A stretch of DNA of 64,000 bases from Amoebophrya sp. A120 (taxonomy: Eukaryota; Protista; Dinoflagellata). Each line of letters starts with the position of its first letter. Positions within the stretch are counted from its first letter, which is position 1. The translations under genes and the position numbers were made by a program. The notes under the pieces were generated by a model. It did not search any database. It saw only the letters and a list, made by a program, of their open reading frames with translations, and had not been told where the DNA came from. The stretch covers positions 2,250,231-2,314,230 of the forward strand of contig CAJINV010000004.1 of the NCBI GenBank assembly GCA_905178155.1, written 5' to 3'. Shown in pieces: positions 8,841 through 62,792 of this stretch.

Positions 8841-11800
8841 ATGATGCAAGGCCTACTGAAGCCGTACAAGAACGTGGCTGCTATCCTGAGCAGAAACGTC
8901 CCTGCCCCAGAGTCAATGATTGGGTACGTAGCAATAAAAGAAATCCAGAAGCTTTCGGAGTCACGCATGACAAGTTCCTCGCTGCATTGTAGTGCAGTTG
9001 AGCAAGCGCGGCCGCATGACCACAGTGCCGTCCTCTCCTTGTCCTGTTTAGAGCAGCGCTAGTACAACTACACATGCCATCAAAAGTTACGGCTGGAAAT
9101 GTCTACTTTGTCATCATGGGCGGGACGCGCATTGCAAATGTTAATGTTCCTGCAGTGCCAAATCTGCATGACAACCCAACCCTGCTGGGGTGAGAACGTT
9201 TTTGTCCAGGATAGCCGTGGAGAAGCAGCAGCGCGACGCGGCCAACAAGTCCAACGCCTCGGAACTATCAAATGTAAAAATGTCCGGGTCTGGAAGACTG
9301 CCAGGTTTGTGTTGCATATTCTGCATCAGCCACCAAGCATCACAGATTCTTAGAGGGCTTTGTGATGCCGATTCCGCATGAGAGATACCCTCCACACGTG
9401 GCACAAACTGGCCTCGTCTTGCTGGTCATGCATCACAGATTTCTTTAGAATCCACAGACAGCATCACAAGTTGGATCCTTCCAGACCCAGACATTTTTAC
9501 AATCCATAGGAACCTCTCTCGGTCCAATCTGGCATCAGCTCGGATGGCACGCACTCCTCCGCCGGGGCGGCGCACCAGGGTATGACGAACGAAGATTTAA
9601 GTAATTCTGCCCGCTTCCTCCGTATTTGTACTAAATGTATGTTATCCCACAGAAAAAAGCTGGCAGGTCACATTTGTAATGCAAAAATAAATACACAAAG
9701 CAATCTGTATTGCGTATCCGAAGCAGCATGCTATGAGGCCGCCCATGGCAGATTTTTCTGTGTATTTATTTTTGCATTACAAATATGCCCTGCCGGCTTT
9801 TTTCTGTGGGATATATGTTGAAACTCAAATTATATTAACCTCGTTTCCTCAGCCTGCGAGCTGTCTGTTCCATGATCGGCATGGTGACAGAGTATCGAGA
9901 AAAACCGTACATCAACCGCAGTACGCATGGATTGCGAGAACTGTGCCCTGTTTGGAATCATGGCATCCTATGGCGTCACTGATTCAACATGCAGCTAGTG
10001 TTAGAAGATAAGGCGATGGGAATATGGTGAAAATTATACTTCTTGTTTACTCATTCTGCATCTTCACTTGCGACGAGCTCTTTTACCACTACCAAATAAG
10101 GAGGTTGTTGGACGGGTGGAATCAAGGGGTTTTTTGTGCACGCTGATACATGACAGCAGCAGTACCCAAGCGACGTCGAGCGGGGAGTTGAGTCCGCCTA
10201 TCAAGAAGAGAAATCCCCCCTCGTCCCAATATCGAAAAGGCACGCCTCAGAAAATTTGCAGTGTTGATTTGGGGCCACAAGTGGCCTCTTTCTTGCAAGA
10301 AGGCAACTGCTCTACCGGCTCCGCGGTTTAGGATGCTCCTAGACCGCATTACACAGGCGGTTTGGGATGCCTACGTTAGACCTAGTACAGGGAAGGCGTC
10401 TGCCATGCTATGCGCCTACCCCAAAACATCCGCGCTAAGGCGGTCCAGTACTGCAAGTCACAGTACTGCAAGACACAGCTCCGGATTTGTGTACAATAAA
10501 CCTGCATCACAGATTTCCGCTTTGATAGGGGGAGGGAGGATTGATTTTTCTTCTTGATACCGCCCACGTTGCTGCACATCCGGAAGCCGTTCTGCCAACC
10601 GGTATTACAGTGAAAAATGCCCCCACGACCCCGGAATTTGCAAAAGGTTCTCATGCATAAGGTTTTCAAATGAAGAACTTTTTATTTATGCATAAAAGGA
10701 CTATGACTATGAGCCTCTCTGATGCAGCAGAATCTAGGCACGGAAGGTAGTTGCTGCATCAGAGATCCGCCTGCTCTTGGGCTCCTTTGCAAAACAAATT
10801 TCAGCTATTCAGCATGGCAAATTTGTCATGCTGATATATGCAAGACGGGGAGTGTTTCCATCGGAAGGGTTTGCAATACAAATGCTGCCAGGTAGTGCTG
10901 GGGTGTGGGCATTTTTCATTGTAATAACAGGAGCCGCGGATCAAGGACAGAAAAGAGCGGGAGAAGGCGGAACGTATCAACTACTATAGTGCTGATTTAT
11001 TTGACTTCTCTGTTGGACTTGGAGTTGGTCTAGTATCGCTTGTGCTCCTTCGAACAAACCCAAAAATCCTCTTCCTGACTGTACTCGCCGGCTTGCCAAA
11101 TGTTGCGCGCGGACGAACATCAATTCCCCAGGTGCTATGCCCGTCCCGGTTTCCTCCAGTCCTTCGCTGGCACACAGGACGTTTCTCGGCACCGCCTACC
11201 TGGGCTTCAACAAGAACCACACCGGCGCGCTATCGTATTTAAAAACGTCCCTAACCCATATTTGTATATGCAAATTTGCATGCTGAAAATGTTTCTCATG
11301 CGCAGCCCAATTAGAAGCATTTTCTACCTGCGTTTTGGAATTTGTTATGCGCCAACCAGCATGACCATGACATACTAGATCTGTGATGCTTCTGAGCTAC
11401 CTCAAACAGCAACACACTACGAGTCCGAATTTGTCATGCAAAACAGCCAAAGCGTGTGGTGTGGATTTGTCTAGCCGATTCCCCGTCTTGACTATGGGGT
11501 GGGGACGTTTTTACATGGGATACGCGCCCAACAACCTGCACCCGGTGCAGAACGTGAAGGACAAAGAGGTCCACGTATTGAGAGGAAAAATCCCCCCTCC
11601 CCATATCGAAAAGGTCTGCTTCCGAAAATTTGTGATGCAGACTTGTGACCACAAATGCTGTCTGTCTTGCAAGAGGGCAAACTCAGAGACTCCGCCACGA
11701 TATGCAGACGATTTGTAATGCTGCAAGACCTATAGGGCAGACGTCTTCCATGCTAGGCCCCTACACCAAGAGGCCCGCCCTTAGGCTTGCGATCTGCGTG

Positions 11801-35200: not shown

Positions 35201-38200
35201 GACTGTACCACGCCTTCCCTGGGACACAAATCGGGCGACAGCTGCGCACTGGGACCACCTTCCGGAGGTGGCGGGCTGGGGTCCGGTCAGGAGCTGCAGG
35301 CCAGTTCATCGGCGAAGGAGAAGACCATTCAGGATATCACTCCCCCCGTAGTGGACCTCGGCAACTACGAGACGGAGCAAGGTTTCATGCTGGGTGATCT
35401 GGAACAACCTCTGTCCCGGTCTTCTGTCCGCTCCAGCGCGGGGATGAATCTGTTGCTGCAAAACAGCGGGGTTGCGGCCGGATTCGCGCCATCTACAGCT
35501 ACAACCGGTGGTGCCGGAACATCAACCTCAAAGCAGATCGCGTCCACCTCTCGGACAAGCAGCAAGCACCAGGTTTTCGATGGAACACCACCAGCAGGCA
35601 GCACTTCAGAGCTCCTGCAAGAAGTAGACCATTCCTCCGGGCAGAACAGCGGGGGGAAACAAACCTCTTCCGGCGGTTCGGTTGCCGCCGTGGACGCGCG
35701 ACTCAGCCAGAATTTGACGTCCAATTTTCAGGTGGACGACGTGGTCCGCACGCTGCGGGAGAACCAGGCGGCGACGACGCAGAAGGAGCGCATGTACAAC
35801 GACCGGGTAGGTACGTTAGAGGAGCAGGAGCAGGCCTTGATCCAGCAAATGCAGAAGCTGCAGCTGGAGAAGGCGGAAGCCATCGCGCAAGCGGACCGGG
35901 CGGCGGCCGTGAACGAGCGGTTTACGGACAAAATCGCCATGCTCATCGACGGCAAGCAGGACGAGGAGGATGCGCAGATCGCACGGCAGCTCGCGGAAGG
36001 AAATCACCAGCATGAGCCTGCTAGTGTGTCTGCAGCTGGCGTTGTTCCTGCAAACGAAACAAATGAGAGCACCACCCTGAATGTTAAAAATCATTCAGAA
36101 ACCAGTCGAACAACAGCTGCGGCGACCGGCATAACCAGCAGTAAAGGTGATGGCAAGAATTATGCCACCGCGTCTTCTACAACTTCTGCGAGCGGAATGA
36201 AAACTAGTGTGGCAGTGGGAGCCCCCACAGCTTCTCCTTCTGCAGTCGGGGAAATAAAAGCGGCAGTAGCTCCGTCTATATCCTCCTCGTCAACATCACA
36301 GAAGAATGCACTAGCGAGAACAATCTCTGCAGCGGTTCATCCCGTTGCTCCCCAGACCGACGTGGCCTTCGATCTGTTGGTAGAGCAGGTCAAGCGCGAG
36401 GAAAAGCGCAACCCGCGCGCTGTCTCCATGTTCCCCGCATTGGGGACGGACCGTCCGATGTGCGTGCAGGGTACATACCACCACGAAATCACCGGGCTAT
36501 TCGAGGAAGGCACGGTACTAAGTACATTAGCCCTACAGTAGTTTTTGTGAAAAATGATAAAGTAAGCAGTTGGATTTTAATATTCTGCATCGTTGGTGAA
36601 AGCCGCCACGACCTGCTGGTCACGAGTATAGCTGCTGCTCCCGCTGCAAATTTCACGTTGCTATTTTAAGTGTAAATTATATATGACATGACGAATGAAG
36701 TACACAACAAGACCAAGATCAAGACCCAGTAAAATAAACATATTGAAACTACAGGTTTGGGTTTTCGTGCAGCTCGCCGAACATCCGTTATTCGGGAGCG
36801 TGAATAGCAGCCGGGAACCGCAATACCATGCGAAGTATGAGGCTTGGCTCGAGGCAGGTATCCAGCAACATCAGCAGGACCTTAGTTCGAGCGTGTTGTA
36901 CTGCCGCTATTTGATGTCCTATAATTTTTTCGAGCGTGTTCATAAATATAAATGTGATGCTGCCCTAGTTCGTTCTGATTCCAGTCGACAAGCACAATGT
37001 ACTTACATCCATAACTGGTCTTGAAATGGTGTATCGTCCACCCGATGGACATGATCATCTATCAGCTCCGTAGTGTGAATATGTAATTACTTAAATTTGT
37101 GAGAAACAACATCAACGACACAACCCAGGCCCGAGCGCGGCGTCGCGCCGAGAGCCGCTCACCGTCGCGCAGTCCGGTGACACGCGGAAGGAGGGCGAGC
37201 TGAAATTCCGGTTCCGGTGGTTCGGCACGGAAGCGGAGGTGAAACTTTCGGAGCAGCTTATCAAATGTAAAAATGTCTGGGTCTGGAAACTTGTGATGCT
37301 GTGTGGCGTATCATGAGGAGGCCACAATTGCTGGCTCAGCATGACAAGTTTCTGAGGAGCTTCTAGGTGTTGCCTATTCTGCATGACAAACTACGTTTCT
37401 GCATGACAGAAAAGTGGGGCTCTTTGGTAATGTGCATGACAGATTTAAGAGTCATGCCAGACAAGCATGACAAACTTGCATTCTTCCAGACCCAGACATT
37501 TTTACACTTGATACAGCTCGTGTGCGCCCGAAACAACCAACTCGCCCTATCAGAAGGAAAAATCCCCCCTCCCCATATCGAAATGGAAATCTGTGATGCA
37601 GGATTTGAGGTACCAAATTGACTTGTCATGCTAGAAGGCCAAGAGCCGCAGTCGTGGTCTCGTTTGCAGGCAATTTGTCATGCTGTTTCCCACTCTCAGC
37701 TGCCTCCTGTCATGCTGAAGATGCAAGGCTCCCCCACGCCACCCAGCACTACAGTCCGCATCTTTTCCCGTGTAGCATGACAAAGCTGATTTGTGACAAC
37801 AAATCTGCATCACAGATTTCAGTTTTGATATGGGGAGGGGGGATTTTTCCTTTTGATACGCCCTGGACGTGGAAGTCACTGCCGACGCGATTGGGCACAG
37901 CGAGCAGACCGCCTCGGCGAGTGGCGTAATTTTAGACTTGATCCAGGAGAAACCGGCGGAGCTGGCGCGAAAAGAGCGGAAGCGGTCTCTCTCTCGCGAC
38001 GCGCGCCGAATCTCGCACCGGTCGGTACCAGCGCGGGACCGACACGGTGCGCAGAACACCGAGATTTCATCCCGCGCGTATGACAGTGCACAACTCCACC
38101 CCCTCCCCCGCATTTGTATAGCATGAGTGGCAATAAGAGCATCAGCAAGAGTGCCGGTTCTGCATGACAATTCTGCACTGGAGTGTAGTGCTATTTGGGC

Positions 38201-41200
38201 TAGTGCCAGAACTTGTCATGCAAACAGCGCCAAGAGGCAAGGGGTGGATTGGATATTTTGCACGACAAACTGTGATCGACGATTACCAGTTGTGTCGCTG
38301 GTCCTGTGCCAGTCGTGGGGCATGTTCGGGTGTTCCGGGCAGTGCTCAGTGCACCCCTCGGACCCCGCACCCCCCCGGGATTTAGTTGCGCAGTCTGTTA
38401 AGCATGACAAATAAGGGGGAGGGGGAGGTGTGCACTGTCATAGCGCGCGCAGACGTAACATGAGAGAGGACCGGTCCCGAGATCCGCCACCGCAAAGAGC
38501 GATGCGCCCTTCAAGGGCGGCCGATGTTGAAACCACAGCTCCGGCTGCTGCTGGCGGTACTAGTACTTCCTCGACGGCCAGGGGCCTACCGCCGCCCGCC
38601 GCGCTGCTCGCGCTCAGCACCGCGGGGGCGGCTGCCGGCACGAGGTACTTATCAATAATTAAAGTACTTACCCACAGACAGTTTCTACGGGCGATTTTTC
38701 TCAACAAGCTGAGAATGGCATATATCAGTTCATTTTTCAGACCGTTCAGAAGAAATTCAGTTCAGAAGAAATTCTTCTTGCAGAAGATAGAGGTCATGAG
38801 ACTCATAGGAAAAAATGAAGAAAATTCGAAAGAGTAAATGAATACTATCGTGCAGGCCCGGCTTTTACCCACCTACCGGGACGAGCACTTCTATCACCAG
38901 CCCGCCGGCACCAGTCGGACCCGGAGCGGTATTAAACTCCTCGGACGGAGAAGAACTTCAGCCACGACGAACTACACCGGTGAAGATTATTCGGACCTTC
39001 GAAGCTACCCTGCAACTCCCCGGCAGTGCGGGCACGGAGACGTTTGAATTTACCGAAGAAGAGATGGAGAGCATGACGGTGAAAGACCTGCGCGACCGAC
39101 TCTCCGCTCGGCTGCGCGGGGAAGTGGTCAGGAGGGGCAGTAGTGACAGCCACGGGGTGGAAACGAGAGTCTACTCGGACAGAATAAAGCAGTCGGCCCT
39201 GAAACGCATGCAGTTTGAGGAGGTTTCGCGGCAGTATAGCAGTAAAATAAATGCTTCGTCGAGTGTGGTAGGTGCAGGCGGGGGCAAGAATGCGAAGAAT
39301 CAACACAATCATTCGCGCACCGTCGACGCAGCAAACGCCGAAGCGGCCGAGGCCTTCCTGGAGCAGTTCCACCATTATGCGCCCAGGGAGGAGGAAGAAT
39401 ACGACAAAGCCATTGCCGCGGGGCGCACTGACGTGCCAAAGCCAAAAATGATTCGGTATGAAAATTTTTACTTTCAAGCAAATTTTCTCGCGTCGTGTGA
39501 GAATTGATTGTGAACCTTTGAGGTTGTAGTTGATACTCTAGTATCAGTACGGATAATCTTCTGTGCTAGAAGTTGCTTCGGAAGTTGTAGTAGATAACGC
39601 TAGATTCGTGAAGAAGAAGAAGAAGAAGAGGCATATCCTGATCATCCTCTTTGGATCACGATTTATTTCTTGCTACATAAATTTAAATACACCAGGCTCG
39701 AGCTTTTGAAGGAACGATGGCAGGACAAGCTGTGGCAGTTTTTCCAGCCTGATCGACTGCACTTGCTGCACGAGAGGTTCGATATCAAATGTAAAAATGT
39801 CTGGGTCTGGAAGGTTGGAGCTTGTGATGCTAACTCTGGACTCTAAAAAAATCTGTATTGCATGATCAGCGAACAGGAGTCTAGTTTGTGCTACACGGGG
39901 CGGGCATTTTTTGTCATGCGGAATCGGCATCAGGAAGCCCTCTAAAAATCTGTGATGCTAGGTCATGCATTACAGACATCCTGGGTCATGCAAAATATGC
40001 ATGACAAACCCAGCAATCTTCCAGACCCAGACATTTTTGCAGTGATAATCGATCCAAACACGCAAAAGCTGGTGAAACACGAAATCAAAAAAACCGCGGA
40101 GATATGGATTGCAAAAATGTCTGGGTCTGGAAGATTGCCAGGTTTGTCATGCAGATTCTGTATGATCCATGACGCCTGTGATGCATTATCTAGCATCACA
40201 GATTTTTAGAGGGCTTCCTAATGCCTATCCCGCATGAGAAATGCCGTCTGCGCGTAAGACAAACTGGACTCCTGTTGCTGGTCATGCAATGCAGATTTCT
40301 TTGGAATCCAAAGACAGCACTACAAGTTCCAACCTTCCAGACCCCGACATTTTTACAGTTGATAGGAGAAGCGACTGCGAGACTTCGTAGCATTTGACAA
40401 GCCACCGGTGGTGGTGAACAAAACCGATGAGGCCGCTGACGAGGGCGACGTCACCACGGAAAAGTTCTTTCTGCAAACCATTTTCGTCGATTGGGGGCGG
40501 TTTCGGCTCAAGCTCGTACCTGCCGACATGACGCCGGAGGTCCGGATATCCTGTGTAAAGTAGACGAGTGCCCACCCAAAATCTTTTTCATGCAAATGTT
40601 GTTCTGCATGTGCCTGAAGTTGTGTTTCTTCTGCGCAGGCCGGTGAGGATAGCCTTTCCCTTTTCTCATGCTAAGTATCTGGGAGCTGGTTGTCACTATG
40701 CTGCAAGAAGCGTCGGGTGAGCGATTCGAAGATGCGGCTGGTGCACTGACGCTAGCTAAACACGATGAGGCTCCTGCGATCCAAATGTTGTCCTGCGGAA
40801 GAGCCAACACATGAGGTTGTTGATTTGCATATTACAGGAAGGTCCCCATCATATTAGGTGAGTCTGGTGCAACAAAGTGGGCGACGTTTTTGCACAGGAT
40901 ACGCTAACCAGTTGAAAAAGCGACGCGAGAGCTTGCTCTGGGGAAAAAACTCTCACATGTCGCACTTCCAGGCCATGCGGATCCTGCAGGAATTCCCCGA
41001 GCTTTTGGTTCCCGATAGTTCATCGTCCACCGGGGTGGAAATTACGGAGGAGAAGTTGGAAGAAAAAGTGAGGGAGCTGAACACCTCGCTGGACCCAGTC
41101 ACAAAGGAGCGGGACGAGAAACGAGTTTTGCTGAAAAAAGCCCTGTCTGACTGGAAAACCGTCTTGCACCCCGGCTACCAGCAGGTGTCCCGGCAGCACA

Positions 41201-43310
41201 GAACTCACAGAACTCCGCAAGTGCAACAACTGCTGGACGCAAAGTACCGACTGCCCAAATCGCTGCACGAGTGGCTGCTGACGACCAATCAGCAAGGGAA
41301 GAAGACCTGGAGCCAACTCGCGCTAAACAACATCTTTTCGGACATCCACGCGACGCAAAAAGTGTTCATGCGACGAGGTGGTGGAGGACAAGCACAGGGG
41401 GCGTCGTCATCTCATAATAGTAGTAATTTTCAGGGCGGTGGTGCAACTAGTAGTTCCTCGGTCGCAGGAGCTGCTGGCTCAATGGGACACCAAGCGGGTG
41501 GTCGCCGGCTGCCCACTGCAGAGCCGGACGAGGAATCCGAGCCGATGGCGACAACAGGAGGGGTTGTTGCCGCGGCGTCTGCGGCACAACAGTCCGCTCC
41601 CCCGTCGGGATCTCACAAGAGGTCCAAGTCTGCGAAGCGGCGCAGTCGGGAACAGAACGCGAAAAGGCGTTCGAAGGAACAGGTATCGCAAAACGCAGAG
41701 GAGGAAAGTAGAAGTGGAAGAAGCGCAATGTCAATTTCATCTGCTCCTTCGACTTCGAGGCAAGAGCCGGATAACAACTCGGAAGAAACCGCCACCCCGG
41801 AGGAGGTTCTTGCCATGGAAGTAGATGAACAAGATGTTGGTGCAAGAACAGACAAAAACCGGACCGGGACTGCCAATGCGCAGCAAAGGGCGTCTCGGCC
41901 GCGCGGAAGGGAACCCGTACGAGCGACAGGAGCAGCTTCGTCCCAACAGCAGCAACTTGTAGCTCCTCCCGTGGAAGTTGTAGATGATGATGCTGACGAC
42001 GACGATAAAAACGACACACCACAGCAACAAGCACACGAAGAACAACTACATCAACCTCGTTCATCCGCCTTGACAGCAGTAGACCAGCTGAGAGCACATT
42101 TGTTCGCGATGTGGCAAAAGGAGAAGCCGGAATCTCTACTCGTAGAAGCGGAGAAGGTACTGCATCCGTGGAGCGAAAAGTTTATGCACTGCAAAAATGT
42201 CTGGGTCTGGAAGGTTGGAAGTTGTCATGCTAAATCTGAATCATGCAAAAATCTGTGCTGCATGATTACCACATGCTGTCCCCTTTTGATCAAGTTCAGA
42301 GGCAGTTTCCCATGCAGGATAGGCATGATAGTTATCTCACGGAATCTGTCATGCTAGGTCCCGCATTCCAGACCTCATGGGTCATGGAAAATCAGCATGA
42401 CAAGTTTACATTCTTCCAGACCCAGACGTATTTGTTTTTCATAGAGCTGGGCGGCCTGCAATACGAGGAGGACGTCGCAGATTGGCAGGAGTGGGTAAGA
42501 GAGGTGCTCTACGAACCCAGGAAACAGAAGGTGAAGCAGGAGAAAAAACAAAAGAAAGGGAGTGCAGCTGCCGCAACTGCAGGAGGAAGTAGTAGCATTG
42601 GCAAGTATCAGGACGACGGTAATAATGTTGATATCCTGTGCAAATAAAGCATGGCACTGGTGTGGAAGGTCGCAACTACTACCCTGAATGTTGACAGTAA
42701 TGTACTTTCCATTATACCGAGGTATGCTTATGCATGGATCAAATTTTGGGCATGGAAATTCTATTTTCTTTCTATCATGATGGAAGAGCCCTTGTCATGC
42801 GAGTTTGCCTTAGTGCGTTGCTTTTGCTTTTGCGATGCATAAACGGCAATGACCAGCAACTCGAAGCGGAAAAAGCCTACTTGAAGGAGGTGCTGAATGT
42901 TGCGTCAAAACTGAAGAAACAGCTGCCGATGCGAAGTAAGTTTCTGATTTCCATATGAGAAAAATTGTCTTATTTTCAACCCGTCTTTCGGGATAAGTTG
43001 CCCCTTTTAATACGTGGCCTTTGTTCCTGTCATCGATTTGATAGATACAGAGCTTTAAAAATATTTTGTGCATGATCTTCTTCCCGTTCATCTTGGAAGG
43101 AAGTTCTTCTCCTGGTGCTCCGAAAAATTGATATAAATCTATCTATCAGGGAGTAGATCGCAAGCCCGCTCGAAATCCCGGGATCGGGGTGTAGGTCCGG
43201 AGCGAGGTGGTCGCAATCCGCGGGAGCCGTCACGAGGTCGCGTGGCGCAGCGAGAAAGAGCAGAAAGACGGCAGATGCAAGAAGAACAAGACGCAGAAGA
43301 TGACGCGGTA
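32300..43310 (+). CDS. Hypothetical very large Q/S/A-rich low-complexity protein or proteins with coiled-coil segments (boundaries uncertain)
   Basis: ORFs 32831, 33707 (944 aa), 37869, 38430, 38980 and 40858 (499 aa). In-frame joins such as EQL|VCAR, LAL|DVEV and SRA|RRRN. Confidence 0.55.
32376..32687. mobile_element. Family I element with an imperfect TIR of about 55 bp
   Basis: TATGGGAGTGTCAGGATTGAAATCGACAGAGTTGAAATAA... is inverted at the right end, which terminates in ATG; DR ACCGG/GCCGG. Confidence 0.82.
32745..33008. mobile_element. Family A introner
   Basis: Family A TIRs; DR GTGCC/GTGCC. Interior similar to 80-341 and 51551-51813. Confidence 0.93.
37259..37513. mobile_element. Family A introner
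   Basis: Family A TIRs; DR CAGCT/CAGCT. Confidence 0.93.
37548..37858. mobile_element. Family C introner
   Basis: Family C TIRs; DR CGCCC/CGCCC. Confidence 0.93.
38079..38442. mobile_element. Family H introner
   Basis: TATGACAGTGCACA...TGTGCACTGTCATA; DR GCGCG/GCGCG. Confidence 0.9.
39783..40047. mobile_element. Family A introner
   Basis: Family A TIRs; DR TTCGA/ATCGA. Confidence 0.9.
40103..40364. mobile_element. Family A introner, inverted relative to 39783-40047
   Basis: Family A TIRs; DR GGAGA/GGAGA. Confidence 0.92.
40547..40901. mobile_element. Degenerate family B element
   Basis: TATCCTGTGTAAA...GACGTTTTTGCACAGGATA. The DR is decayed (CCGGA/CGCTA), but removing the element plus 5 bp keeps the frame. 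Confidence 0.65.
42183..42443. mobile_element. Family A introner, diverged
   Basis: Family A TIRs; DR AAGTT/GAGCT. Confidence 0.82.
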
Positions 43311-45292
43311 TGTTTTTTTCGGTTGGAGTGCAACTCGAAGAACTTTTTGCGCCACATTATGACAAATAAAAAAGATCCTTTTTGTTCCATCAGGAGAAAT
43401 AAAAGCTAAACCGCACAATACTATAAACACAAAGGTTCTCGACGCGGCCGAAGCGCAGGCAGCACAGGAACGCACTGGGACTTTTGCACCGAGGGCGCTC
43501 TTGCAGAAAGTTGGTGGTTGGTTCGGTAACTTAAGAGGTGGCGGAACTGACGACAGTAGTCGAGGAGGAAATCTTCCTGCGCCGTAATTTTGTAGATTAA
43601 GAGTTCCGCGACGAGTGGTTGTTCAGGGTCTTGCTTTTTCAAAATGATCTATAATCATTCTACTGAATTGCAAATCTAGCAGGTTGCGCAGCTGCTGTGA
43701 CGAGCAAACGCGCAGCGATATAGTTACGATAAGATTTTTAAACTTGAAAGCATGCGCATACAAAAATGCACAAGCGTCTTAATACAACTTTTACAACAAT
43801 GAACGAGAGGGATAAAAATGAGAAAGATACTGTAGCTGTAAAGGATACAAGCACAACATCAACAATGAACCGCGCTACTAGAAGATGAACCGCACGGGAT
43901 CATCATCATTCTGCAGTAGTGCTCTGCTTGCTACTCGAGCTGCTGGGCAGAATTTTTAGGAACACTATCACTGCCCTAAATTCAAGGAGCGACGACCAAG
44001 GCGGTGAGCTATGCATATGATAAGTACAACCATAAGTCTGACGAAGGGAAAGAGCCACCTGCTGGCGCCCATGCCTCTTGGGCTCATCATACGACGTCAG
44101 AGGTGAGGTGAGGCCACTTGCATCTTCAGGTAGTTTTTTTTTATCTGCAGGCTTGACTTCTTCTTGTAGAAGACAGTCAGCCAGAGTCTGTTTAAGTACT
44201 AGACTACCTTCGTCAATATTGCTTTTCTACGCACAGCATGTCTTCCATAAACACCTTTTTGGTTTTTCTCCGTTATTTATGTTTTTTGTCTGAGAATTTA
44301 GCAAAGCCCCTGAAGTAGGAAAACAGCACTGGCCACGCGCCAGTTAAGAATAAAGAGGTACGTCAAGAACTGCTCATCATAAAATTATTTGCATCTATTT
44401 TGCGCGCTTGCACGTGCATTGGATTTATGAGGTTTTTAGTACAAAAAATCAGAACACGGTGTAGCTCCATCATTTTTGTTGCGAAGCATGCGAAACGTAT
44501 TTTTCTGTGCTCAAGATAAAGATGAAGATGAACCACTTCATCAACTTTCAGGTTTCACCTTGCGAAAAGAAAATTGCAGACAGATCGTGGTGGCGCCGTT
44601 CTTGCATTTTTGCTACGCAGGGCTTCTACTATGATCCAAAGCAGGAGCAAAGCACCTTTATCAATGTTCCTGTTTCCACTTGGATGGTTTTCATTGCATG
44701 TTTTTCAGTTCAGTCGTACAAGAAATGTGACTTTGATAGTTCTTTTTGTCACAACTCGGTTAACAGATGCAGCGACAAAAGTTCTCGAGCCATTAAATTT
44801 CTATGTCTAGTACTTCTTTGTGTGCCATCAACGACATGTTGAATCGCATCGGTAGTTGTACTCCATCGCGTCTCCGTGTCCGTCCATCTGATCGTGCTTG
44901 TGGTATAATGTTCGTTTTTCGTTCAATTTTGTCGTTCAACTTAACCATTTTCGTCCGCATCGTTTCCGTTTGTCTGTCTTTTTGCAACCTGGTGACCAGG
45001 TGGCTGTCGTCAACAAAGAAATGCCTCGTGCTGTTTTTCATCTTCATCGTGTTTCATCAACATTGAATCTACACGTACACTTCGATAATCAGTTCATTTT
45101 CTACCCCAGTAGTACCACTTACCCGCTTTGAATTCTTTATTTTCTTTACGCCCAATGCCAATATAATTTAAATTTTCTGTGAATTTGACAACCCCGTATC
45201 TGTGATGAAGGCCGCCCATTTATTATTGTACTATTGTTGCGTAGAAATCAGTTCGCATTGGTAGGTTTTGCGTATTGATTGTATTCAGGACG

Positions 45293-48200
45293 ATGCCCGA
45301 GCCCGACGAGGGGGAGGCACAGATGAACATTACAGCCAAGAACCCAACTGAAGGGCAGGGTGACGTGGTCGACCAGGAGATGACAACACCAGGTCCGCAA
45401 GAACACCAGGTCGTCCAAGAGCAGCAGGGCATGGCCTTTGCGAGTCTGCTGCACAGTCAGGATATTTTGCAGCAGGAGGAGGAAGAGAAGTTAATAGCAG
45501 TAGCACGAGCGTCATCGAAGGAAAGAAAGGTAGCAGAAGGCGAGGACGAGCACACGGCTGAGACAGTTGTACGAGAGCCTTCACCGGATGAGGGCCAGCA
45601 GGATGAAAAGCAAAATGCAGGATCTTCCCCGACTTTGATCGACATCGACGTCGGGGCCATGCTGGGCCCGATCTTGGATCACCTCGACGAGGAAGAGAAG
45701 GAGGTGAAGAAGCAGGTGCAGATCGCGGAAGTCGAGGAGGCAAAGACCACCGCGAATACTAGTAAGTCTGGTCGGCTGGCCGGAACAGCAGGCTTGTCCA
45801 TTTTGGGGCGGTGGAAGAAGAAGGTGCGCCAACTGCAGATGGGCATGCGGGTGGCGAAAACCCTGGATGAGCTGCACCAAGCGGTGAGACAGAAAGACCC
45901 CGTGCTTTTGAACCAGATGGCGCCGTTGCAACGGCTGATCACGCAGGGGTCGGAGAAAATGATCACCGAGGTGGCGACCGCGGTGCCGAAGGACGACTTG
46001 TTCCGAAAGAGAGGGGACGAGGATATCAAATGCAAATATGTCTGGGTCTGGAAGATTGGAAGACTTGTCATGCACATTTTGCATAACCCATGATGTCTGT
46101 GATGAATGCGGTAGCATCACAGTTTTTCTGAGGGCCTCCTGATGCCTATACCGCATGAGAAATGCCCACTCGGCGTAGCAAAGACACGACTTCTCTTGCT
46201 GCTTATGCAATACAGATTTTTTTAGAATCCAAGGACAGCATGACAGGTTGCATCCTTCCAGACCCAGACATATTTGCAGTGCATAGAGGAGGTTGAGAAG
46301 CAACTCCTGCTGGACGCGCAAAACGTCGACATCCTGGACGTGCTCCAGGAGGTGGAGATTTCCGACCACCAGAAACAGATGGAGATGATTGACAAGCGGG
46401 GACGGCAGGCCGCGAAGGAGGAGCGGAAGCGGCAACGGCAAGCGAAGTACAAGCAGCAGGCGCAGGATAAAGCACTAAAAGTTTTATTCTTCGACCAGAA
46501 TCACCATCCCTATCAAATGTAAAAATGTCTGGGTCTGGAAACTTGTAATGCTGCGTTGGGAAAAGTGAATGCTCTGTAATGCACGGGCAAGCATGAGACA
46601 TCTCTGCGCTTCTTTGTGTTGCGTTTTTCGCATGACAAACTGCGTTTTTGCATGACAGGCAACAGGGTCTCTTCTTGGACACGCATCACAAGCTTTGTGG
46701 TCCTGCCAGACAAGCATGACAAATCTCGCAATTTTCCAGACCCAGACACTTTTACATTTGATAATCCCTACCGCCGGTCAAAATCCACCGGGACCTCGAA
46801 GTCCTCGTTGGATCTCGGCACGGAGGAAAGTAGGGACTCCTCGGAAGAAAAGATGAGAACAACCGGAGCTTCTCCTGCGCAAGAACAACCGCATCAGTTG
46901 ACGGGGAGCCACCGTGGCACGCACCCAAGCACGACGGACAGCTCGTTTCAGTCCATGCGGAGGAAGTCGAAGGACCTGCTCGCGCAACAGCAGGATTACG
47001 TCGTGAGGCCGCGGAAGAACAGCCGGGACCGGCAGGTTTCGGGGGCGGCGTACCCGGACCCAAGGGAGCCGTTTCCCGTCACCCCCGAGGAGAAGCGGAA
47101 AGCGCGGTTGTGGCGGATTTTCAAGCGGTCGGAAGACGCCAAGGTCTCCGTGGCGAAACACAATTTGCGCGCGAAGCTGCAGAACAAGCCGCCCGCCCCC
47201 GGCGGCGTGGCGGACTTCCGGAAGGGCGCGAAACGCAACCTGCCCTTCCCCCGCGACGCGATCGCGCGGGCGGCACTGACAAACTTAACGTACCAAAACG
47301 AGCTGATATCCAAGAAAAACTCGCTGCAAAACAACCTCGGGAAGGTATCAAACCGAAAAATCCCCCCTCCCCATATCGAAAACGAAATTTGCGATGCTGG
47401 ATTTGAGTACACAAATCGACTTGTAATGCTGGAAGGCCAAGAGCCGCAGTTGTGGCCTCGGGTGCAGGCAATTTGTCATGCTGTTTTCCACTTCCAGTTG
47501 CTCTCTGTCATGCTGAAGGCGCAAGGCTTTCCCACGCCAACCAGCACCACGCTCCGCATGTCTTTCCTTCTAGCATGACAGAGCTGATTTGTCACCACAA
47601 ATCTGCATCACAAATTTCTAGTTTGGGGTGGGGGGATTTTTCATTTTTATAGAAGGTGATTGCGCGGCCGGAGCAGTTCCCGTTCACGTCGGAGGAGCTG
47701 GAGCTGGCCGGGTTATCAAACGTAAAAATGTCTGGGTCTGGAAGAATCCGAACTTGTGATGCTGCATTTGGATTCTAAAAAAATTTTTATTGCATGACCA
47801 GCAAAGGATATGCAATTTTGGCTACGCGGCGAGAGCATTTGTCATGCGGAATACGTATCACGAAGCCCTCAAAAAGTCTGTGATGCTTGGGCATGCATCA
47901 CAGACATCGTGGCCCATGCAAAACGTGCATGACAAGTTTCAGAATCTTCCAGATCCAGACATTTTTACATTTGATACGGGTACGGGGAAAACGAAAACGC
48001 GGAGACGAACCCCTTTCCGGATGTGCTGCACAACATGTCGGGGAGTAATTCCACGATGGGGGGTAATATAGGCGCGCAGCTGGGGTCCTACATGGAGACC
48101 AACTTTGGAGACGAAAATATTACTACCCATTCGGTTGTTCAACATGACCTCGAGAAGATGTTGGAACAGCAGGCACACGCCCACGAAGCAGGTCTGAGCG

Positions 48201-51200
48201 GACCAATGTCCGTCGATTTGGAGCAGTTCCGGGATATTTCCTTGCAGTCCCTGGACCCCTCGGAAATCATGCCGGCTGCTGTTGCGGCCACGGTCACCCA
48301 GCAGGCGGAAAAGCTGCAGGAAACGCTGCGGAAGAAACCGGCAAAGAGGCTGCACAAGGACATGGTGCAGGAGTCGCAGGCGCGGTCGCCTTGGTCGCCA
48401 CTGCCCAAAACGGACGTAGAGGAGATTCTGCTGGAACAACAGAAAGCGAAAGCGAACACGGGCATCAACCTGTACCACCCCCTGGCGAACCCGACGGACC
48501 GCTTTTTGCCCAGCTTTCTCTTCCCCCACCCGGCGGTCCACGGGGACTACGACTTTTTTCACGAAGACTTGCCCTATCTGATTCAGAAGCAGCAGCTATC
48601 CAATCGATGGAGCAAAAGTCGTGCGTTTAAAATGATCGCATGGTCGTATGAATTGCATAGATAAATGATAGGCAAAAACATGAAAATGATCCCTTTTCCT
48701 TTACTTAAAACTCGTTTTAGAATTACATCAACAATAAATAAAAATGCAATTGGTACTAAGTGCGATTATACCGATACATCACGTACTAGTACTTTTGCAA
48801 TGCATAGCAGCACCAGAAGCACGACCTGGAGGACCACGAGTACTTGATTCTGCCCATGGCCCGGTTTGCTAACGAGCCTTTGGTCGGCGAAAACCGGGTG
48901 CGCTTGGTTTTGTCGAAACTGGAAAAATTCCCGATGCTCCGGAAGAACAACGGCATGTCCCTGCTACCCCCACTACACAAGAACATCCCGAAGGCGCCGA
49001 AGAAGAAGCCGAAGATCTTCCCCCCGAAGGGCGTCGCGGATATGTTGAGGAAGCGGAGGGAGAAGCCGCACGTAACCCACCCGCTGGCGATCTACCACGA
49101 CGCGGTCGTGGCGATCGAGGAGCGGTGTAAGGCCATGAAGGAGGAGTGCCGGAACAAGCTGAAGGAAAACCAGCTGCGTTCGCGGCGGATTTGCATCAAG
49201 AACGCGCAGCTGCCGCATTCCCGGCGCCGGCAGGTGTTGAAGCAGATCGCCTGCAAGCGGTCGGAGTTGAAGAAGCGACAGTTTTTGGCCGTGAAGCCCG
49301 TGATCAAAGCTGCCGACCCGCCCCCGAAAAAACCCGGGAAGGCGGGCGGCCGCTGGCGGGCGGGCTTCGCGAAGATCACGGGCAAGATATCCTGAGTAAA
49401 AACGTCCCCATTGTACCAGAGTCAAGATGGGGAATCGGCTAGACAAGTCCACGAGTTTTGGCTGTTTTGCATGACAAATTCGGAGTCGCAGTGTAGTGCT
49501 GTTTGAGGTAGTTCAGTAGCATCACAGATCTAGTGCATCACGCTGATAGGCGCATTACAAATTCTCGAACACGACCAGAAAATGCTTCTCATGTGTCTCC
49601 GCATGACAACCATTTTGAGCATGCCGATTTGCATGACAGCTCTGGGGTCGTGGGGACGTTTTTACACAGGATACAAGATGCCGCCGACGGAGCGGCCGAG
49701 TTCGGGCGGCGGCAAGAAGTCGCTCTTCATGGCCGCCTTCACGGACCGGGCCGACAGCGACGAGGAGCCCATTGAGGACGTGGAAGTAAAACCGGACACG
49801 CGGCTAGAATTGGACAAGCTCGAGTCCGTCGACAGCACGACCGTGACCGCGCTGTTGAGTCCGCGATACGACGGTTCAACCATGAACCAGGTGGTGCGCC
49901 CGGCGGTGACCAGCGGGCCCAAGAACAAGCACGCGTGGCCGCTGCCGGAGGAATCCAACCTGACCGTCACCCCCTCGACGCAATTCTACCGGGACTTGAC
50001 CCTGCAGGGCCCCTGGTACCAGGGGGGCATGTCGCGCGTGATTCAGACCATGCAAAACGAGCAGCCCCAGAACACGAACGCGGGTGTGGATGCGGCGAAT
50101 CTGCTGAAGAAGCAGGACAAGCACCAGCTCCGGGAGTACTCCATCAAAGACACCGCGGACTGGTATCCTGAGTAAAATCGTCCCCACCCCGATCCCAGAG
50201 TTGTGATGCAAATGTGCAATGACAGCAACATTTGTAATGCGCAGTTCCATGAGAGGCATTTCCAATCGTGTTTTGGAATTTGTAATGCCGTAAACAGGAT
50301 GAGAAAATGGCTTTCTAATGCGGCTCCCCTTGCCAACCACCACTACACTGCAGAGCGAAACTTGTCATGCACAGCTCCCAAAACTTGGAGACTTGCGTTG
50401 CTAGATTCCCAACTTGACTATGGGGTGGGGACGTTTTTGCTTGGGATAACTGGCGCATCCTGTTCGACTGTTTCTACCCGAAGGATCGGACGAAAAAGCC
50501 GCGGAAGCACCCGATCCTGATCCGTACGGAGCAGACGACGAACGCGAGGTTGATGTTCTCGGAGACGCTTTCGATGGTGTTGCGGTCTTTGCATTTGCAC
50601 CCACTCGGGGACACGAAGCAGATGCACTTACAGGTAAAGGAGCTGGTGGAGTACCGGGCAAACGCGGCCAGGATGCAGCTGTCGAAGATTTTCAAGAAGG
50701 AAGTGAAGCAGAAACCGACCAAGTGGAACAAAGACACCTTCACCACCACTATGCAGATGTTCCAGCAAACCGAATCGCCCGCGATGTTCGAGCAGGCGCA
50801 ACTGAGCACCGACTGGTACACTGGGCCCCGGGACAAGCAAGCGTCCCTGCCCACGAGCAAGGAGGTCCGGCGGGTGCTGGCGCGGCAACTGGACTACTAC
50901 GTCACGTGCACGGACGAGTTTATCGACGCGTTTCGACAGGATTTTCCGCCGCTGGACGAGGATACCCAGGCCATGCTATGGTGAGCAAAAACGTCCCCAC
51001 CCCAGAGTCAAGATGGCAAATCTGCTTATACAAATCAACCAGCTTTGGCTGTTGCGCATCACAAATTTGGGCTCGCAGAAGTATAGTCGTGTTTAGCTAG
51101 TGAAGCAGCATCACAGCTCTAGCATACCATGCGGATGCGAGCATCACAAATCGCAAAACACCAGCAAGGCCTGCTTCTCATGGGTCTCCGCATGAGAAAC

Positions 51201-54200
51201 ATTTTCAGCATGCAGATTTGCATTACAACTGTGGGTTGGGGACGTTTTTACAAATGATATATGCTGGACATGGGCTTGGAGGAGTACCACCCGAAGTTCT
51301 GCACAGTGGACCACTTTCTCGAGGTGTTCCAGGCGTTGCGCGCGAACCACGGGTTCAGCAACAACGAGCTGGACGGGATCACCTACTGGTTTTTGAAGCA
51401 CCCCTTCTCCGCGGAGTCAGTCCGCCGGTTTTTGCTGCGCTGGGGCTACGCGACGGACTTCGAGGTGCTGTGGGACAGCGCGCGACAGGTGATTCCGGGA
51501 ATCGTGAAGAAGGAGAAGTCAACGAACACAAACAGTACCCAACTACACTCTATCAACTGTAAAAATGTCTGGGTCTGGAAGGATCCGAACTTGTGATGCG
51601 AGTTGCGGATCATACAAAGATCTGTGTTGCATGACTGGCAAAAGGTGCTCACTTCTGGCCATGCTGAGAGGGTATTTCTCATGCAGAATAGGCATCACGA
51701 AGGGGCTGCAGAACCTGTCATGCTAGGCCCCGCATTCCAGACTTGACAGAGCTTGGAAAAACTGCATGACAAATTTCGGAATCTTCCAGACCCAGACATA
51801 TTTGCAATGCATACACTCCGTGTCCCAGTTGTCCCTAGATGCGACGGGGGGCGCGAACAACCAAAGCCAGTTGCGCCAGGGCAAGGGACGGAGGTCTCTC
51901 TCCAAGATGGACAGCGTGGTCAGCAACGTCGACGAAAGCAAATTCAAGCCCTTCGAAAGCGTCGGCGACAGCTCGGCGTACTGTTTATTTTTTATTTGAA
52001 TTTTGTATTTCGTATTCGTACTACTACTATTCTATGAAGTTTTTCTTAAGATGTCAACGTAGTGCACTCCCTTGTTGTGCTGCTCCGTTTACTCATCGGG
52101 TCGGATGGTCTTTCAAGTGCTATACACATCTGGAACTTGTAGCAATGAACACACATCACAGGTCTTCGAACAACGAATCCGCCGAAGAGTGGGAACTGCC
52201 GGCTAACTGCAAGCTGTGCGTTATGCTGAGCAAAAACGTCCCCACCCCAGAGTTGTCATGCAAATCCGCATGCCAAGAAAGTTGCTCATGCGGAGCCCCA
52301 TGAGAAGCATTTTGTAGTCGCGTTTTGGAATTTGTGATGCTAGAATAAGCATGATAAGCTAGATTTGTGATGCTGCTGAAATAGCAAAACAGCACTACAA
52401 TACGAGAACAAACTTGTCATGCCAAACAACCAAAGCTGGTTGTTTGTCTAGCAGATTTCCCATGTTGACTCTGGTGTGGGGACGTTTTTGCACAGGATAT
52501 GCGTCCCCCAGATCGCGTACGTGCTGCAACACCTCATCGCGGCCCAGGAATTGAAGGTCCGGAAGGTTTACGAGGAGTGTGTGAAGGAAGACCAGCGGCA
52601 GCTGCTCGCGAGTGGCAAGTCCGGCCCGGTCGAGGATTTGCCGAGGTTGAGCGATACCCATTTTGACGAGGACTTCCCGCGGTTGCGGTACGCGCCGATT
52701 CCGAGTGAGACCGTTTTGTCCCTGTTGCCGTTCTATCAAATGCAAAAATGTCTAGGTCGAGAAAGTTGGAACTTGTGATGCTGGCCTTACATTCCTGAAA
52801 AATCTGTATTGCATGACCAGCAAAAGACGTGGCGTCTTCTGTCATACAAAAACGCAGTTTCTCTTTTGCAGAAAGCGTATGAGAAATAACCGTTCTGCAA
52901 ACTTGTCATGCTTGGCTGCATTGGGAAGCGCTTTCATCATGAACAGTTCAGCATCACAGATTTCCAGACCCAGACATATTTGCAATGCATACGTTCCCGC
53001 CCTACGTGTCGTTGATGCAGCCCGTGCCCGCGATCTACACGCAGGACGCGCTGCGGAAGTTCGTGCGCCAGGTGATTCAGTCCCACGGCTTCTCCACGTC
53101 GTTCCTGATGCTCGCCCGGAACTGCTTCTACCGGATTGTGGACAAGACGCCCGACCTGATCGACCTGAACGCGCAATTCTACCTACCGGAGGTGTTGGCG
53201 ACGGACGCGGATATCGTCTTCGACAGGTACCACACACGGGAACAGCGCATCAAGCCGGAAGACGGGTCCTTCATTCTGCCGCCGAATAGCCCGCTGCTGC
53301 CGGATGCTGCGGCGAGCGGAACTGTATTAGGAAACAATAGCAACTCAAGTGCGACATCAATATTACATAGCGCGAATCAGGATGACAACATGAATTCTAG
53401 TCCGCTGACGTTGAACCGGGAGCAGACGAGCCTAACGCAGCTGTCCACCATGTCGGCTGCGAGTGTGATGACGACGGGAACGGACGGTAGGCCGAAGAAG
53501 CGGTTTAAGCGCCAGTTGTCTTCCTCCCCCAATAACAATCCGGACCCGACTTTTTGGTCGGACACCTTTCACATTATGGAGCGCAAAAAGTGGGACAACA
53601 AGCACTTCCTCCACCCGCGATTCTTCTCCTGGTGGATCCAGAAGATGGGTTTCAACAGTTGCAGTGTGTACGATCTGACCTTTCTGCAGCGGAGAAAAGA
53701 GCCGTTAGACTTGTACGACTGCCTAGAAATTCTCCGGCCTTTACTGGAAAACGAAAAGTTCATGATCTCTCAACTGTTTGTCCTCTATGTGATCACGCCG
53801 CCCCGACCCCTCCGCACCTACATCTCCGGACCCAAAGAGTTCCCGGAGGCGGACGCGCCGCGCGGGTATTTGTTATTATCTTTCGACGAGGCGCAAGAGA
53901 TGGCGGCGCAGGGCCACGACCCGCACAAGGTCGAGGTGCTGATGGGGCTGCGAGACGACGGGAAATCCCGGGTCGACATGGACGTGTTGTTGCAGATCTT
54001 CTTAACACTCACCGCCTTCCCACGGGACCGGATGGACCAGGAGTGCCTCGAGGACTTCAAGCTCGATTTTGTCAACGCGTCGATCGAATCGACGGTGGAA
54101 GCGGGGGAGAAACAGCACGACGGCGGGGAAAAGATCGCGCTCAACTTTTTCAACGTGGTCAAGATGCTGAACAAGATCCGGATCGCAAGTGCGCTGGACG

Positions 54201-54298
54201 CGGAGAGGGGCATTTTGAAAACGAGAAAGAAAAAAGCGATGAGCAAGGTCAAGGCCATGATGAAAATGGGAATTCTGGGCGGCATGAAATCTTCATGA
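45293..54298 (+). CDS. Large hypothetical protein interrupted by 11 TIR introns and at least one probable GT-AG intron (about 51978-52161)
   Basis: All 11 element+DR removals join adjacent ORFs in frame (DEE|VEK, HP|YRR, GKV|IAR, AGY|GEN, QQH|QKH, GKM|PPT, DW|RIL, AML|DMG, LHS|VSQ, LCV|PQI, PF|PPY). Confidence 0.75.
46024..46285. mobile_element. Family A introner
   Basis: Family A TIRs; DR GAGGA/GAGGA. Confidence 0.93.
46511..46763. mobile_element. Family A introner
   Basis: Family A TIRs; DR ATCCC/ATCCC. Confidence 0.93.
47346..47651. mobile_element. Family C introner
   Basis: Family C TIRs; DR GAAGG/GAAGG, which allows a GT-AG reading at 47345-47655. Confidence 0.9.
47714..47976. mobile_element. 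Family A introner
   Basis: Family A TIRs; DR CGGGT/CGGGT. Opposite orientation to 46024-46285. Confidence 0.93.
48597..48806. mobile_element. Degenerate family E-like introner
   Basis: TATCC...GCAAAAGT at the left and ACTTTTGCAATGCATA at the right; DR GCAGC/GCAGC; frame restored on removal. Confidence 0.75.
49388..49673. mobile_element. Family B introner
   Basis: Family B TIRs; DR CAAGA/CAAGA. Opposite orientation to 52222-52499. Confidence 0.93.
50164..50448. mobile_element. Family B introner
   Basis: Family B TIRs; DR ACTGG/ACTGG. Confidence 0.92.
50977..51259. mobile_element. Family B introner
   Basis: Family B TIRs; DR CATGC/TATGC. Confidence 0.9.
51551..51813. mobile_element. Family A introner
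   Basis: Family A TIRs; DR CACTC/CACTC. Confidence 0.93.
52222..52499. mobile_element. Family B introner
   Basis: Family B TIRs; DR TGCGT/TGCGT. Interior close to the BiP copy at 21284-21562. Confidence 0.93.
52734..52991. mobile_element. Family A introner
   Basis: Family A TIRs (left end diverged); DR CGTTC/CGTTC. Confidence 0.9.
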
Positions 54299-62017: not shown

Positions 62018-62416
62018 ATGGCGGGCAAGTCGCAGGAGCTGATCAACAAGTTGCTGCAGGCCGAGGATGAGGCCGAGAAGATCATCAAATCGGCCCGTGA
62101 CATGCGGTCCAACAAGCTGAAGGACGTGAAGTCTGCGGCGGAGGAGGAGCTGGCGCCCTTCCGCATGAAGGAGGAGCAGAAGTTTTACGACGAGCAGCGC
62201 GCGGTTGTATCCTGTGCAAAAGTGACGTATTCGTATTGCAATCATGCATTACAAATTTTGTTCTTCAGGTAAATCAGCATTACAAATTTTGTTTCTCATG
62301 CTGAGGAAATTTGTAATGCATTTATACGAGTGCGATACTTTTGCAATTCATAGGTTGCGGCCCAGAACAGCATGTCGATGGATTTGGAAAAGTCCACGGC
62401 GGGGGAAATTGCCGCG
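62018..62416 (+). CDS. ATP6V1G: V-type ATPase subunit G, 5' part (exons 62018-62207 and 62358-62416; 3' end not found)
   Basis: MAGKSQELINKLLQAEDEAEKIIKSARDMRSNKLKDVKSAAEEEL matches the subunit G N-terminal pattern (LLxAExxAxxxVxxAR...RLK). GT donor at 62417. Confidence 0.8.
62208..62352. mobile_element. Short family E introner in the V-ATPase G gene
   Basis: TATCCTGTGCAAAAGT...ACTTTTGCAATTCATA; DR GGTTG/GGTTG; frame restored on removal. Confidence 0.85.
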
Positions 62417-62509: not shown

Positions 62510-62785
62510 TTTGAGTTGCAAAATATTTCGCCTTGGAAAATATTTCGGCTTGCAAAATGTTTCGACTTGCAAAATATTTCGGCTTGCGAAGTATTTCGAC
62601 TTGCAAAATATTTTGAGTTGCGAAATACTTTGAGTGGCGAAATATTTCGACTTGCAAAATATTTTGAGTCGCGAAATAATCCGAGCTGCAAAATATTTTG
62701 AGTTGCGAAATATTTCGACTTGCAAAATACTTCGAGTCGCGAAATATTTTGAATGGCAAAATATTTTGAGTCGCAAAATATTTTC
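62510..62785. repeat. 17-bp minisatellite (approx. AAATATTTCGACTTGCA), about 16 copies
   Basis: Tandem periodicity is visible directly and as repeating KYFAS/QNI peptides in the ORF track. Confidence 0.9.
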
Positions 62786-62792
62786 TATTGGC

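Follow-up and report, generated by a model that had tools for sequence, protein, structure and literature searches.

Introner elements of Amoebophrya sp. A120 are missing from transcript-like contigs in either orientation, with one cut register

The window considered here is the whole analysed stretch of 64,000 nucleotides (nt), positions 2,250,231 to 2,314,230 of contig CAJINV010000004.1, in which the genes are interrupted by short inserts with inverted ends. A BiP exon in the window is 100% identical to the Amoebophrya sp. A120 protein P0007 and 98% identical to an A25 protein, and judged by sequence the host of the window matches Amoebophrya sp. A120. All genes examined lie on the + strand. 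Two of them carry most of what follows: a gene at 45293..54298 (+), whose 1939-amino-acid frame is interrupted by 11 inserts and one GT-AG intron and whose last exon has no Pfam match, and a gene at 8.8-15.9 kilobases (kb), presumably MOB kinase activator-like, an identification left unconfirmed by Pfam, which gave no such match for two short exons. Copies of the same insert family lie both ways round in these genes, and both orientations are missing from the transcript-like contigs.

As far as their sequence goes, the inserts are the introner elements already published for A120, with the same anatomy; the organism is the same by protein identity, and there is no difference in kind. The accessible text of that description (Farhat et al. 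2021, PMC7789003) gives the elements ends of TAT, seven variable bases and at least three As, a hairpin, direct repeats of 3-5 nt and RNA support, and reports about 29,850 copies. Our strict scan took TAT…ATA segments whose ends are complementary and which have a 5-nt repeat at their flanks, a repeat that the scan itself demanded, as did the looser one; it gave 43 candidates for the window, whereas every one of five local shuffles gave 0. The looser scan gave 51, of which three (43062, 56146 and 60343) were removed before clustering, the first two being regarded as chance; further decayed or nested copies were added from RNA joints. The window elements form clusters of 10, 8, 6, 6 and 2. A pattern scan of metagenome contigs, all from a single set (prefix JACKZZ01) and without RNA support, found 253 elements in 163 loci, up to 94% identical, against 1 in the shuffled control. 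TAT starts 289 of 294 element ends, and A stands at positions 11-13 in 99% of 147 family A copies, families B and C having the same layout. The elements have the traits of miniature inverted-repeat transposable elements (MITEs): they are short (145-570 nt) and non-coding (stops in all three frames in the 11 tested), with terminal inverted repeats, a target duplication of fixed length and nested insertions that have repeats of their own.

Some further features of the elements may be recorded here. One additional element, at 4913, starts TAC, and an A1-like element at 28447-28890 reaches 444 nt through an unrelated internal segment. An 8-nt motif, TGTVATGC or the reverse complement of it, is concentrated in the elements: 8.1 kb of element sequence has 81 copies, lying on both strands, while the GT-AG introns have 2 (in 2.4 kb), the exons 1 (in 11.2 kb) and the intergenic sequence 0 (in 12.9 kb); these motifs are candidate transposase or splicing-factor sites.

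The transcript evidence consists of assembled contigs from one sample, the source of both sets X3 and X4, and their RNA nature is the tool's guess; X3 is taken as RNA-like because it is without GT-AG introns and has a depth of about 1 between genes. One X3 contig (record 10) spans 45091-54799 in 6523 nt, which is the length of the model. Throughout the 45293-54298 gene, in X3 and X4 alike, each gap equals element plus 5 nt with a residual of 0 for all 11 elements, besides a residual of 184 nt. We assign the latter to a GT-AG intron at 51978..52161 (+); a GC-AG intron at 51959-52142 is the other length-compatible candidate. Four elements (48597, 49388, 50164 and 50977) are bounded directly by pieces of contig among those listed, the other seven by length, in groups.

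In the order of the gene, with signs giving orientation relative to a family reference copy (46024 for A1, 46511 for A2 and 52222 for B), the 11 elements are as follows. The A1 reference copy at 46024..46285 (+; repeat GAGGA) and the A2 reference copy at 46511..46763 (+; repeat ATCCC) are missing from X3 and X4 by length, the first jointly with the second. The C2 copy at 47346..47651 (repeat GAAGG), which has GT-AG at the register described below, is followed by an A1 copy at 47714..47976 (-; repeat CGGGT), inverted relative to 46024 and missing by length jointly with 47346. The decayed element at 48597..48806, with weak end complementarity, repeat GCAGC and CT..AG at the same register, is skipped in X3 and X4 and is carried whole by record 6 of the DNA-like contig set X1. 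Three B copies come next: 49388..49673 (-; repeat CAAGA), with a direct X3 piece boundary between 49382 and 49674; 50164..50448 (+; repeat ACTGG), with a direct boundary between 50158 and 50449; and 50977..51259 (-; repeat copies CATGC/TATGC), where X4 record 12 has a boundary between 50972 and 51261 and keeps the first base of the left copy. The last three are removed by length: an A1 copy at 51551..51813 (-; repeat CACTC), the B reference copy at 52222..52499 (+; repeat TGCGT), inverted relative to 49388, and an A2 copy at 52734..52991 (-; repeat CGTTC), inverted relative to 46511.

For the 8.8-15.9 kb gene, 13 of the 16 modelled elements are found among the 15 joints listed, and for the remaining three both length and depth agree with removal. 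Over the two genes, every modelled element (27/27) is missing from the X3 contigs, and exactly one repeat copy is left behind each time; X3 depth is 0 in three bins that lie wholly within elements. Two of the missing units are composite. The outer element at 11939-12537 carries a nested A2 copy (11957-12215) inserted 18 bases into its 5' inverted end with its own 5-nt repeat, and the outer element at 9581-10148 holds a nested element at 9643-9813; both outer units are missing from the X3 contig. The raw-read RNA runs X10 and X11 gave 0 reads on 8500-16100.

The DNA-like X1 contigs present the opposite picture. Their depth over unique sequence is flat at about 25-40-fold, and all eight X1 pieces listed either enter elements, ending inside them at 21-29-fold, or span 48597-48806 intact without gaps; none skips an element. 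These counts refer to the pieces and joints listed, contigs drop rare forms, and X1 may be the window's own assembly sample. Element removal occurs at the RNA level.

An earlier note on this DNA had proposed that removal is independent of orientation, naming four pairs of family copies as inverted relative to each other. Its element coordinates are all exact, and all four pairs are indeed inverted. Scored on interiors trimmed by 35 nt per end, against a shuffled background of 0.42±0.06 (maximum 0.52), identity in reverse complement vs. forward is 0.80 vs. 0.53 for 39783/40103, 0.77 vs. 0.52 for 46024/47714, 0.75 vs. 0.50 for 49388/52222 and 0.95 vs. 0.46 for 13410/37259. The orientation assignments agree along every edge within each cluster. 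The 'family A' of that note needs dividing: each named pair does fall within one subfamily, but A consists of two, A1 and A2, which have a common end motif and interiors that do not align (46024 vs. 46511 scores 0.52 and 0.53 in the two orientations). Removal of 49388 and 13410 is seen as direct joints, and that of 46024, 47714 and 52222 follows from exact record-length arithmetic.

Reading frames are likewise restored, as had been claimed, in the 45293-54298 gene and at 39783+40103, whereas for 37259 the test is weak. Without its 11 elements, each taken with one repeat copy, and without the 184-nt GT-AG intron, the former gives a stop-free frame of 5820 nt. The adjacent A1 copies at 39783..40047 (-; repeat copies TTCGA/ATCGA) and 40103..40364 (+; repeat GGAGA), inverted relative to each other, lie where transcript-like depth is below 1, so that the frame is their support; of five options the frame opens solely when both are removed with one repeat copy each, and the remaining four leave stops in all three frames. 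The A2 copy at 37259..37513 (+; repeat CAGCT), a 95% reverse complement of 13410, also leaves an open frame once removed, but since the frame is open with the repeat copies left in as well, this says little. A further A1 copy at 42183..42443 (-; repeat copies AAGTT/GAGCT) has an open frame once removed. Neither this copy nor 39783, 40103 and 37259 showed a joint in the transcript-like contigs, the depth at the latter three being below 1. Part of this copy has a counterpart in the raw-read RNA run X9, whose 166 reads, 164 of them at 90-95% identity, fall on element sequence only: in about 160, a short A1-like piece (window 42193-42269; 90-95% identity) has foreign sequence to its left and right and looks like a truncated element of another locus or strain retained in a transcript.

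Sixteen of the 27 RNA-supported elements can be assigned an orientation (A1 2:2, A2 1:3, B 3:2, C 0:2 and one copy of C2). Three families are thus missing from the X3 contigs in both orientations, in two genes, which bears out orientation-independent removal. A tally of orientation against gene strand in the JACKZZ01 set points the same way. Its 253 elements include 132 with a coding-strand call, 88 of these with a family, and the orientations (A1 16:24, A2 11:18, B 2:5) show no family departing from 1:1 (p >= 0.26); the coding strand was called by a codon model trained on this window and is to that extent circular, 20 of 23 window elements being called +, 0 - and 3 left uncalled. The symmetric ends, also proposed earlier, are the likely cause: with inverted ends, either strand presents the same 30 nt or so at its termini, and both element strands fold alike.

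The cut register can be read wherever the two repeat copies differ, as the number of left-copy bases retained in the transcript. The B-like element at 8882..9213 (-, weakly; GCTGC/GCCGT) has a joint from 8879 to 9217 that shares one base and keeps 3-4 left bases. The decayed outer element at 9581..10148 (CAGGG/CATGA) likewise keeps 3-4, its joint from 9578 to 10152 again sharing a single base. At 10603..10926 (ACCGG/ACAGG; joint from 10600 to 10930) 3-5 bases are kept, the element having GT-AG if the number is 4, and at 14595..14851, a decayed element (AGAAG/AGCAG; joint from 14592 to 14855), also 3-5. An element at 12860..13145 that ends in ATT rather than ATA (CTTGT/CCTCT) keeps 4-5, with one shared base at its joint from 12858 to 13150. 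The B-like element at 15255..15568 (+; GGCAG/GACAG) keeps at least 2, its joint running from 14985 to 15571 and enclosing 5 letters; the transcript-like contig retains an exon of about 8 nt (15246-15253) that separates this element from the A2 element at 14986-15241. For the outer element at 11939..12537 (AGCCG/AGCTG) the value of 4-5 is indirect, from depth, its joint not being among those listed: a depth of 0.79 in the bin 12310-12563 fits a restart at 12542. The mismatched junctions of 13195, 13410, 14240 and 50977 give 'at least 1' left base only; 13410..13661 is an A2 copy (-; ACAGA/GCAGA) with an X3 joint from 13405 to 13663.

The sole value that fits all seven informative junctions, six of them direct and the seventh (11939) indirect, is 4, so that the intron consists of one base (N), TAT…ATA and four further bases (NNNN). 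The register may vary from element to element, but these junctions do not call for it. The mirror value of 1, which would be expected in about half of the junctions if the element set the polarity, fits 0 of 7; 8882 and 15255, which are weakly related, are opposite to each other against 6 of 6 family B copies. The joints of 8882, 9581 and 12860 share only one base and are nevertheless cut exactly; repeat identity is therefore not required, and the part in recognition that the earlier note gave to the direct repeat is not supported. A concentration of repeat mismatches at position 1 was considered and dropped, the counts over the five positions being 11, 8, 3, 7 and 6 (132 copies). The published A120 data agree with this register, in that the repeat typically lies four bases upstream of the element's 5' end and all 9 predominant motifs in Table S4 begin NT (PMC7789003, accessible text).

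At this register TAT occupies +2 to +4 in 30 of 30 elements, which is largely fixed by the search. Ten of the 12 GT-AG introns of the window (four supported by RNA, five threaded from the BiP protein and three from the cyclophilin frame) start GTAY, a continuation that only 10% of the window's GT sites show (p 7e-9). The first and last two bases of the elements vary freely: the 5' dinucleotide is GT in 11, CT in 10, AT in 5 and TT in 4 (n=30), and the 3' dinucleotide is AG in 6. Hybrids with GT and no AG (9/30) or AG and no GT (4/30) are common. Folding predicts in-register end pairing (at least 3.4 expected pairs) in 22 of 27 elements and in 0 of 12 GT-AG introns. The five elements for which it is not predicted are removed all the same, and all five have GT or AG (5/5 vs. 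9/22; p 0.04, post hoc). G at +1 is found in 6 of 8 window elements with a weak stem vs. 5 of 22 others (p 0.028). As regards the stem itself, positions 4, 5 and 7 pair no more often than in shuffled ends (73 vs. 83, 81 vs. 86 and 44 vs. 53 among 147 family A copies), the relatedness of the copies limiting this comparison and the opposite one given below. Variants were too rare among 85 copies for any 5' vs. 3' asymmetry in end conservation to appear, and a fixed branch A at -7 was rejected, its motif being found in some copies only.

We lean, with reservations, toward a relaxed U2-type spliceosome that removes the elements from RNA, reading the element end as a donor while the stem places the acceptor. 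The elements have TAT…ATA inverted ends and a 5-nt repeat at their borders, and the contigs show that taking out the element plus five bases gives back the original coding sequence. At six junctions, and indirectly at a seventh, the cut fits a single position along the transcript that precedes TAT by one base and follows ATA by four; this places TAT at +2 to +4, as in the GTAY donors of the same genes, and leaves the first and last two intron bases free. The element end may be read as a donor via the U6 ACAGA box, in the manner of the +4 U type. The end-to-end stem, in joining the two ends, would replace recognition of both U1 and AG, with the acceptor presumably measured four bases past the stem. 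As both strands have the same ends, an insertion would be spliced in either orientation, and the predicted product is a lariat. U2, U4, U5, U6 and 83 of 89 spliceosomal proteins are reported present in A120, and snRNP27 is not detected there (PMC7789003); in yeasts, loss of SNRNP27K accompanies a preference for +4 U donors (PMC10581693). The same X3 and X4 contigs lose a GT-AG intron as well as the elements. Precedents compatible with the spliceosome exist, since two-way introners with spliceosomal ends have been published and introns derived from terminal inverted repeats need the U2 spliceosome in Fritillaria.

The earlier note had reasoned that spliceosomal introns are polar and that removal in both orientations points away from the spliceosome. 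This step fails because the transcript supplies the polarity, and symmetric ends suffice under any machine. Orientation independence follows from end symmetry and therefore does not exclude the spliceosome: the terminal 30 nt or so are the same on both strands, TAT falls on the +2 to +4 of GTAY, and spliceosomal introners of two orientations are on record.

Several observations weigh against the relaxed spliceosome. Only 2 of 30 elements have GT-AG at the inferred register, and at most 2 of 30 have GT/GC-AG at any register. In 132 other copies G at +1 (44) and final AG (16) are at background level, so that no selection is visible on the bases which the catalytic core normally checks. The excess of G at +1 with a weak stem is not repeated in the other set (5/18 vs. 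39/114), and repeat position 2 is similarly skewed. The five 'no-stem' elements show 3 to 15 end-to-end pairs in other registers, and stem positions 10 and 14 do pair more than in shuffled ends (103 vs. 80 and 111 vs. 83 among the 147 family A copies). A motif scan of the elements found no branch motif conserved in both orientations, nor did one appear in the GT-AG introns. The GTAY consensus could derive in part from old elements. U1 small nuclear RNA is undetected in A120 (PMC7789003), and the RNA evidence is, as stated, contigs of one sample whose RNA nature is guessed.

Less likely, though plausible, is a separate non-spliceosomal RNA pathway, in which a protein would see the stem or end motifs and cut the RNA at staggered positions, one base ahead of the stem and four beyond it, after which a ligase would join the exons, releasing a circle or a linear RNA as proposed for euglenid nonconventional introns. 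Such cutting and joining is plausible because the terminal dinucleotides are free; the contrast in in-register pairing between elements (22/27) and GT-AG introns (0/12) would suit it, as would the like folding of both strands. A fixed staggered cut beside a stem is the typical product of enzymes of this kind. In euglenids, introns that have inverted ends are released as circles and not as lariats (PMC11282704, PMC12501133), and the A120 authors, with U1 undetected, expect a distinct mechanism (PMC7789003, accessible text). Against this pathway, the register matches the local GTAY donor; the five elements without predicted in-register pairing are removed nonetheless, each having GT or AG, three stem positions near the cut lack excess pairing, and no candidate enzyme is in hand, none having been sought. 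In its strongest form, a second RNA cut-and-join machine independent of the spliceosome, reading the transposon end on either strand and cutting one base ahead of it and four beyond it whatever the flanks, appears less likely than not. If true, it would be a general anti-transposon splicing pathway by which insertions in their tens of thousands are made harmless, and a domesticated transposase or a pair of endonuclease and ligase might be its basis.

Excision from DNA, in which a transposase or recombinase would use the inverted ends and repeats and transcripts would come from an excised template, was the other route suggested earlier and is very improbable. It would fit the transposon anatomy and the exact loss of one repeat copy, and DNA cut in a symmetric stagger would likewise yield, on the template strand, a register that is polar with the transcript, so that polarity alone cannot exclude it. 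However, the DNA-like X1 contigs enter or cross the elements, none of the eight pieces listed skipping one; joints with one shared base oppose the use of homology, and the contigs that lose elements also lose GT-AG introns. No excised form such as programmed DNA elimination would leave is seen in X1, whose contigs keep the elements, contigs being prone to drop rare forms. Jumps of reverse transcriptase across a repeat-flanked hairpin, with ribosome bypass or some other route in the cell, are a scarcely credible source of the gaps: all RNA data are presumably derived from complementary DNA and hairpins with flanking repeats are a known source of false introns (PMC4176328), but a single contig is without all 11 elements, three bins within elements have a depth of 0, the three joints with one shared base are exact and in one register, elements with weak stems are skipped too, and the conserved BiP and cyclophilin frames require removal.

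The system is not new, because the elements have been described in print and other organisms are known to have two-way introners; the added value is in exact, testable constraints. Farhat et al. (2021) call the splice position variable, whereas a single register and both orientations are found here on a small sample, and neither the main nor the supplement text of that paper (PMC7789003) makes a statement on element orientation. No transposase was found in A120 according to the same source, while a later paper reports integrase-like open reading frames in some A120 elements. In the literature covered, which took in few subscription journals and included PMC12130899, PMC12005148 and PMC12787238, we found neither two-way splicing nor lariat data mentioned for the elements of A120. 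The introners of Polarella glacialis are derived from DNA transposons, have target duplications and are introns in either orientation, as here, and those of Aureococcus anophagefferens are cited as likewise two-way (10.1101/2020.10.14.339549). Both require GT/GC/GA and AG ends, which either the element or the duplication supplies, and are biased in orientation, whereas here neither dinucleotide is constrained and no bias was detected. The pipeline of an introner survey permits opposite orientation (10.1101/2022.06.06.494994).

Closer in their ends are the non-canonical introners of Fritillaria borealis, where the inverted ends of a non-autonomous DNA transposon are non-GT/AG splice sites (10.1101/2025.08.15.670264, PMC11282704) and the U2 spliceosome is reported to be necessary (10.1101/2025.08.15.670264). 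They differ in preferring AG-AC and AG-AT ends and in having a conserved U1; the searchable text of that report does not mention orientation. Euglenid nonconventional introns (PMC11282704, PMC12501133) resemble the A120 elements in their offset-pairing inverted ends, junction repeats, likely MITE origin and unknown machinery, but pair +4 to +6 with -8 to -6, where the A120 elements pair +2 to +4 with -7 to -5. They seldom form hybrids with conventional ends, which are common here, and circles have been shown for the euglenids.

The puzzle to which these constraints apply is that A120, where U1 is undetected, removes over 60% of its introns without GT-AG. It is now narrowed to removal at the RNA level, in both orientations, with repeats that need not be identical and one register that matches the local donor consensus. 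From this register the 5' and 3' ends to be expected in lariat or circle assays can be stated exactly, and either outcome would be notable, be it a spliceosome indifferent to +1, -2 and -1 or a second machine. The register is also a rule for annotating these genes.

Elements interrupt the other genes of the window as well. P0007, the A120 BiP, threads the whole BiP/Hsp70 gene at 18999..22707 (+) with seven interruptions, namely five GT-AG introns and the elements 21284-21562 (B) and 21643-21898 (A2), which lie inside conserved codons. In the cyclophilin gene (59343-60630) an element at 60027-60261 falls within a conserved stretch, and the weak TAT…ATA segment at 60343-60448, with GTACT repeats, stands at the donor of the third GT-AG intron, possibly as an old insertion and possibly by chance. 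The V-ATPase subunit G gene (62018-62203) has an element at 62208-62352; inside or after this gene, at 62510-62950, an array of degenerate units of about 20 nt and then a G-rich 7-nt repeat can be made out by eye. Also by eye, two distantly similar frames with short acidic motifs, presumably EF-hand-like, lie at 16800-17800 and 57700-58740, and a sequence of about 280 nt occurs twice, at 860-1140 and 6590-6900, each time downstream of genes.

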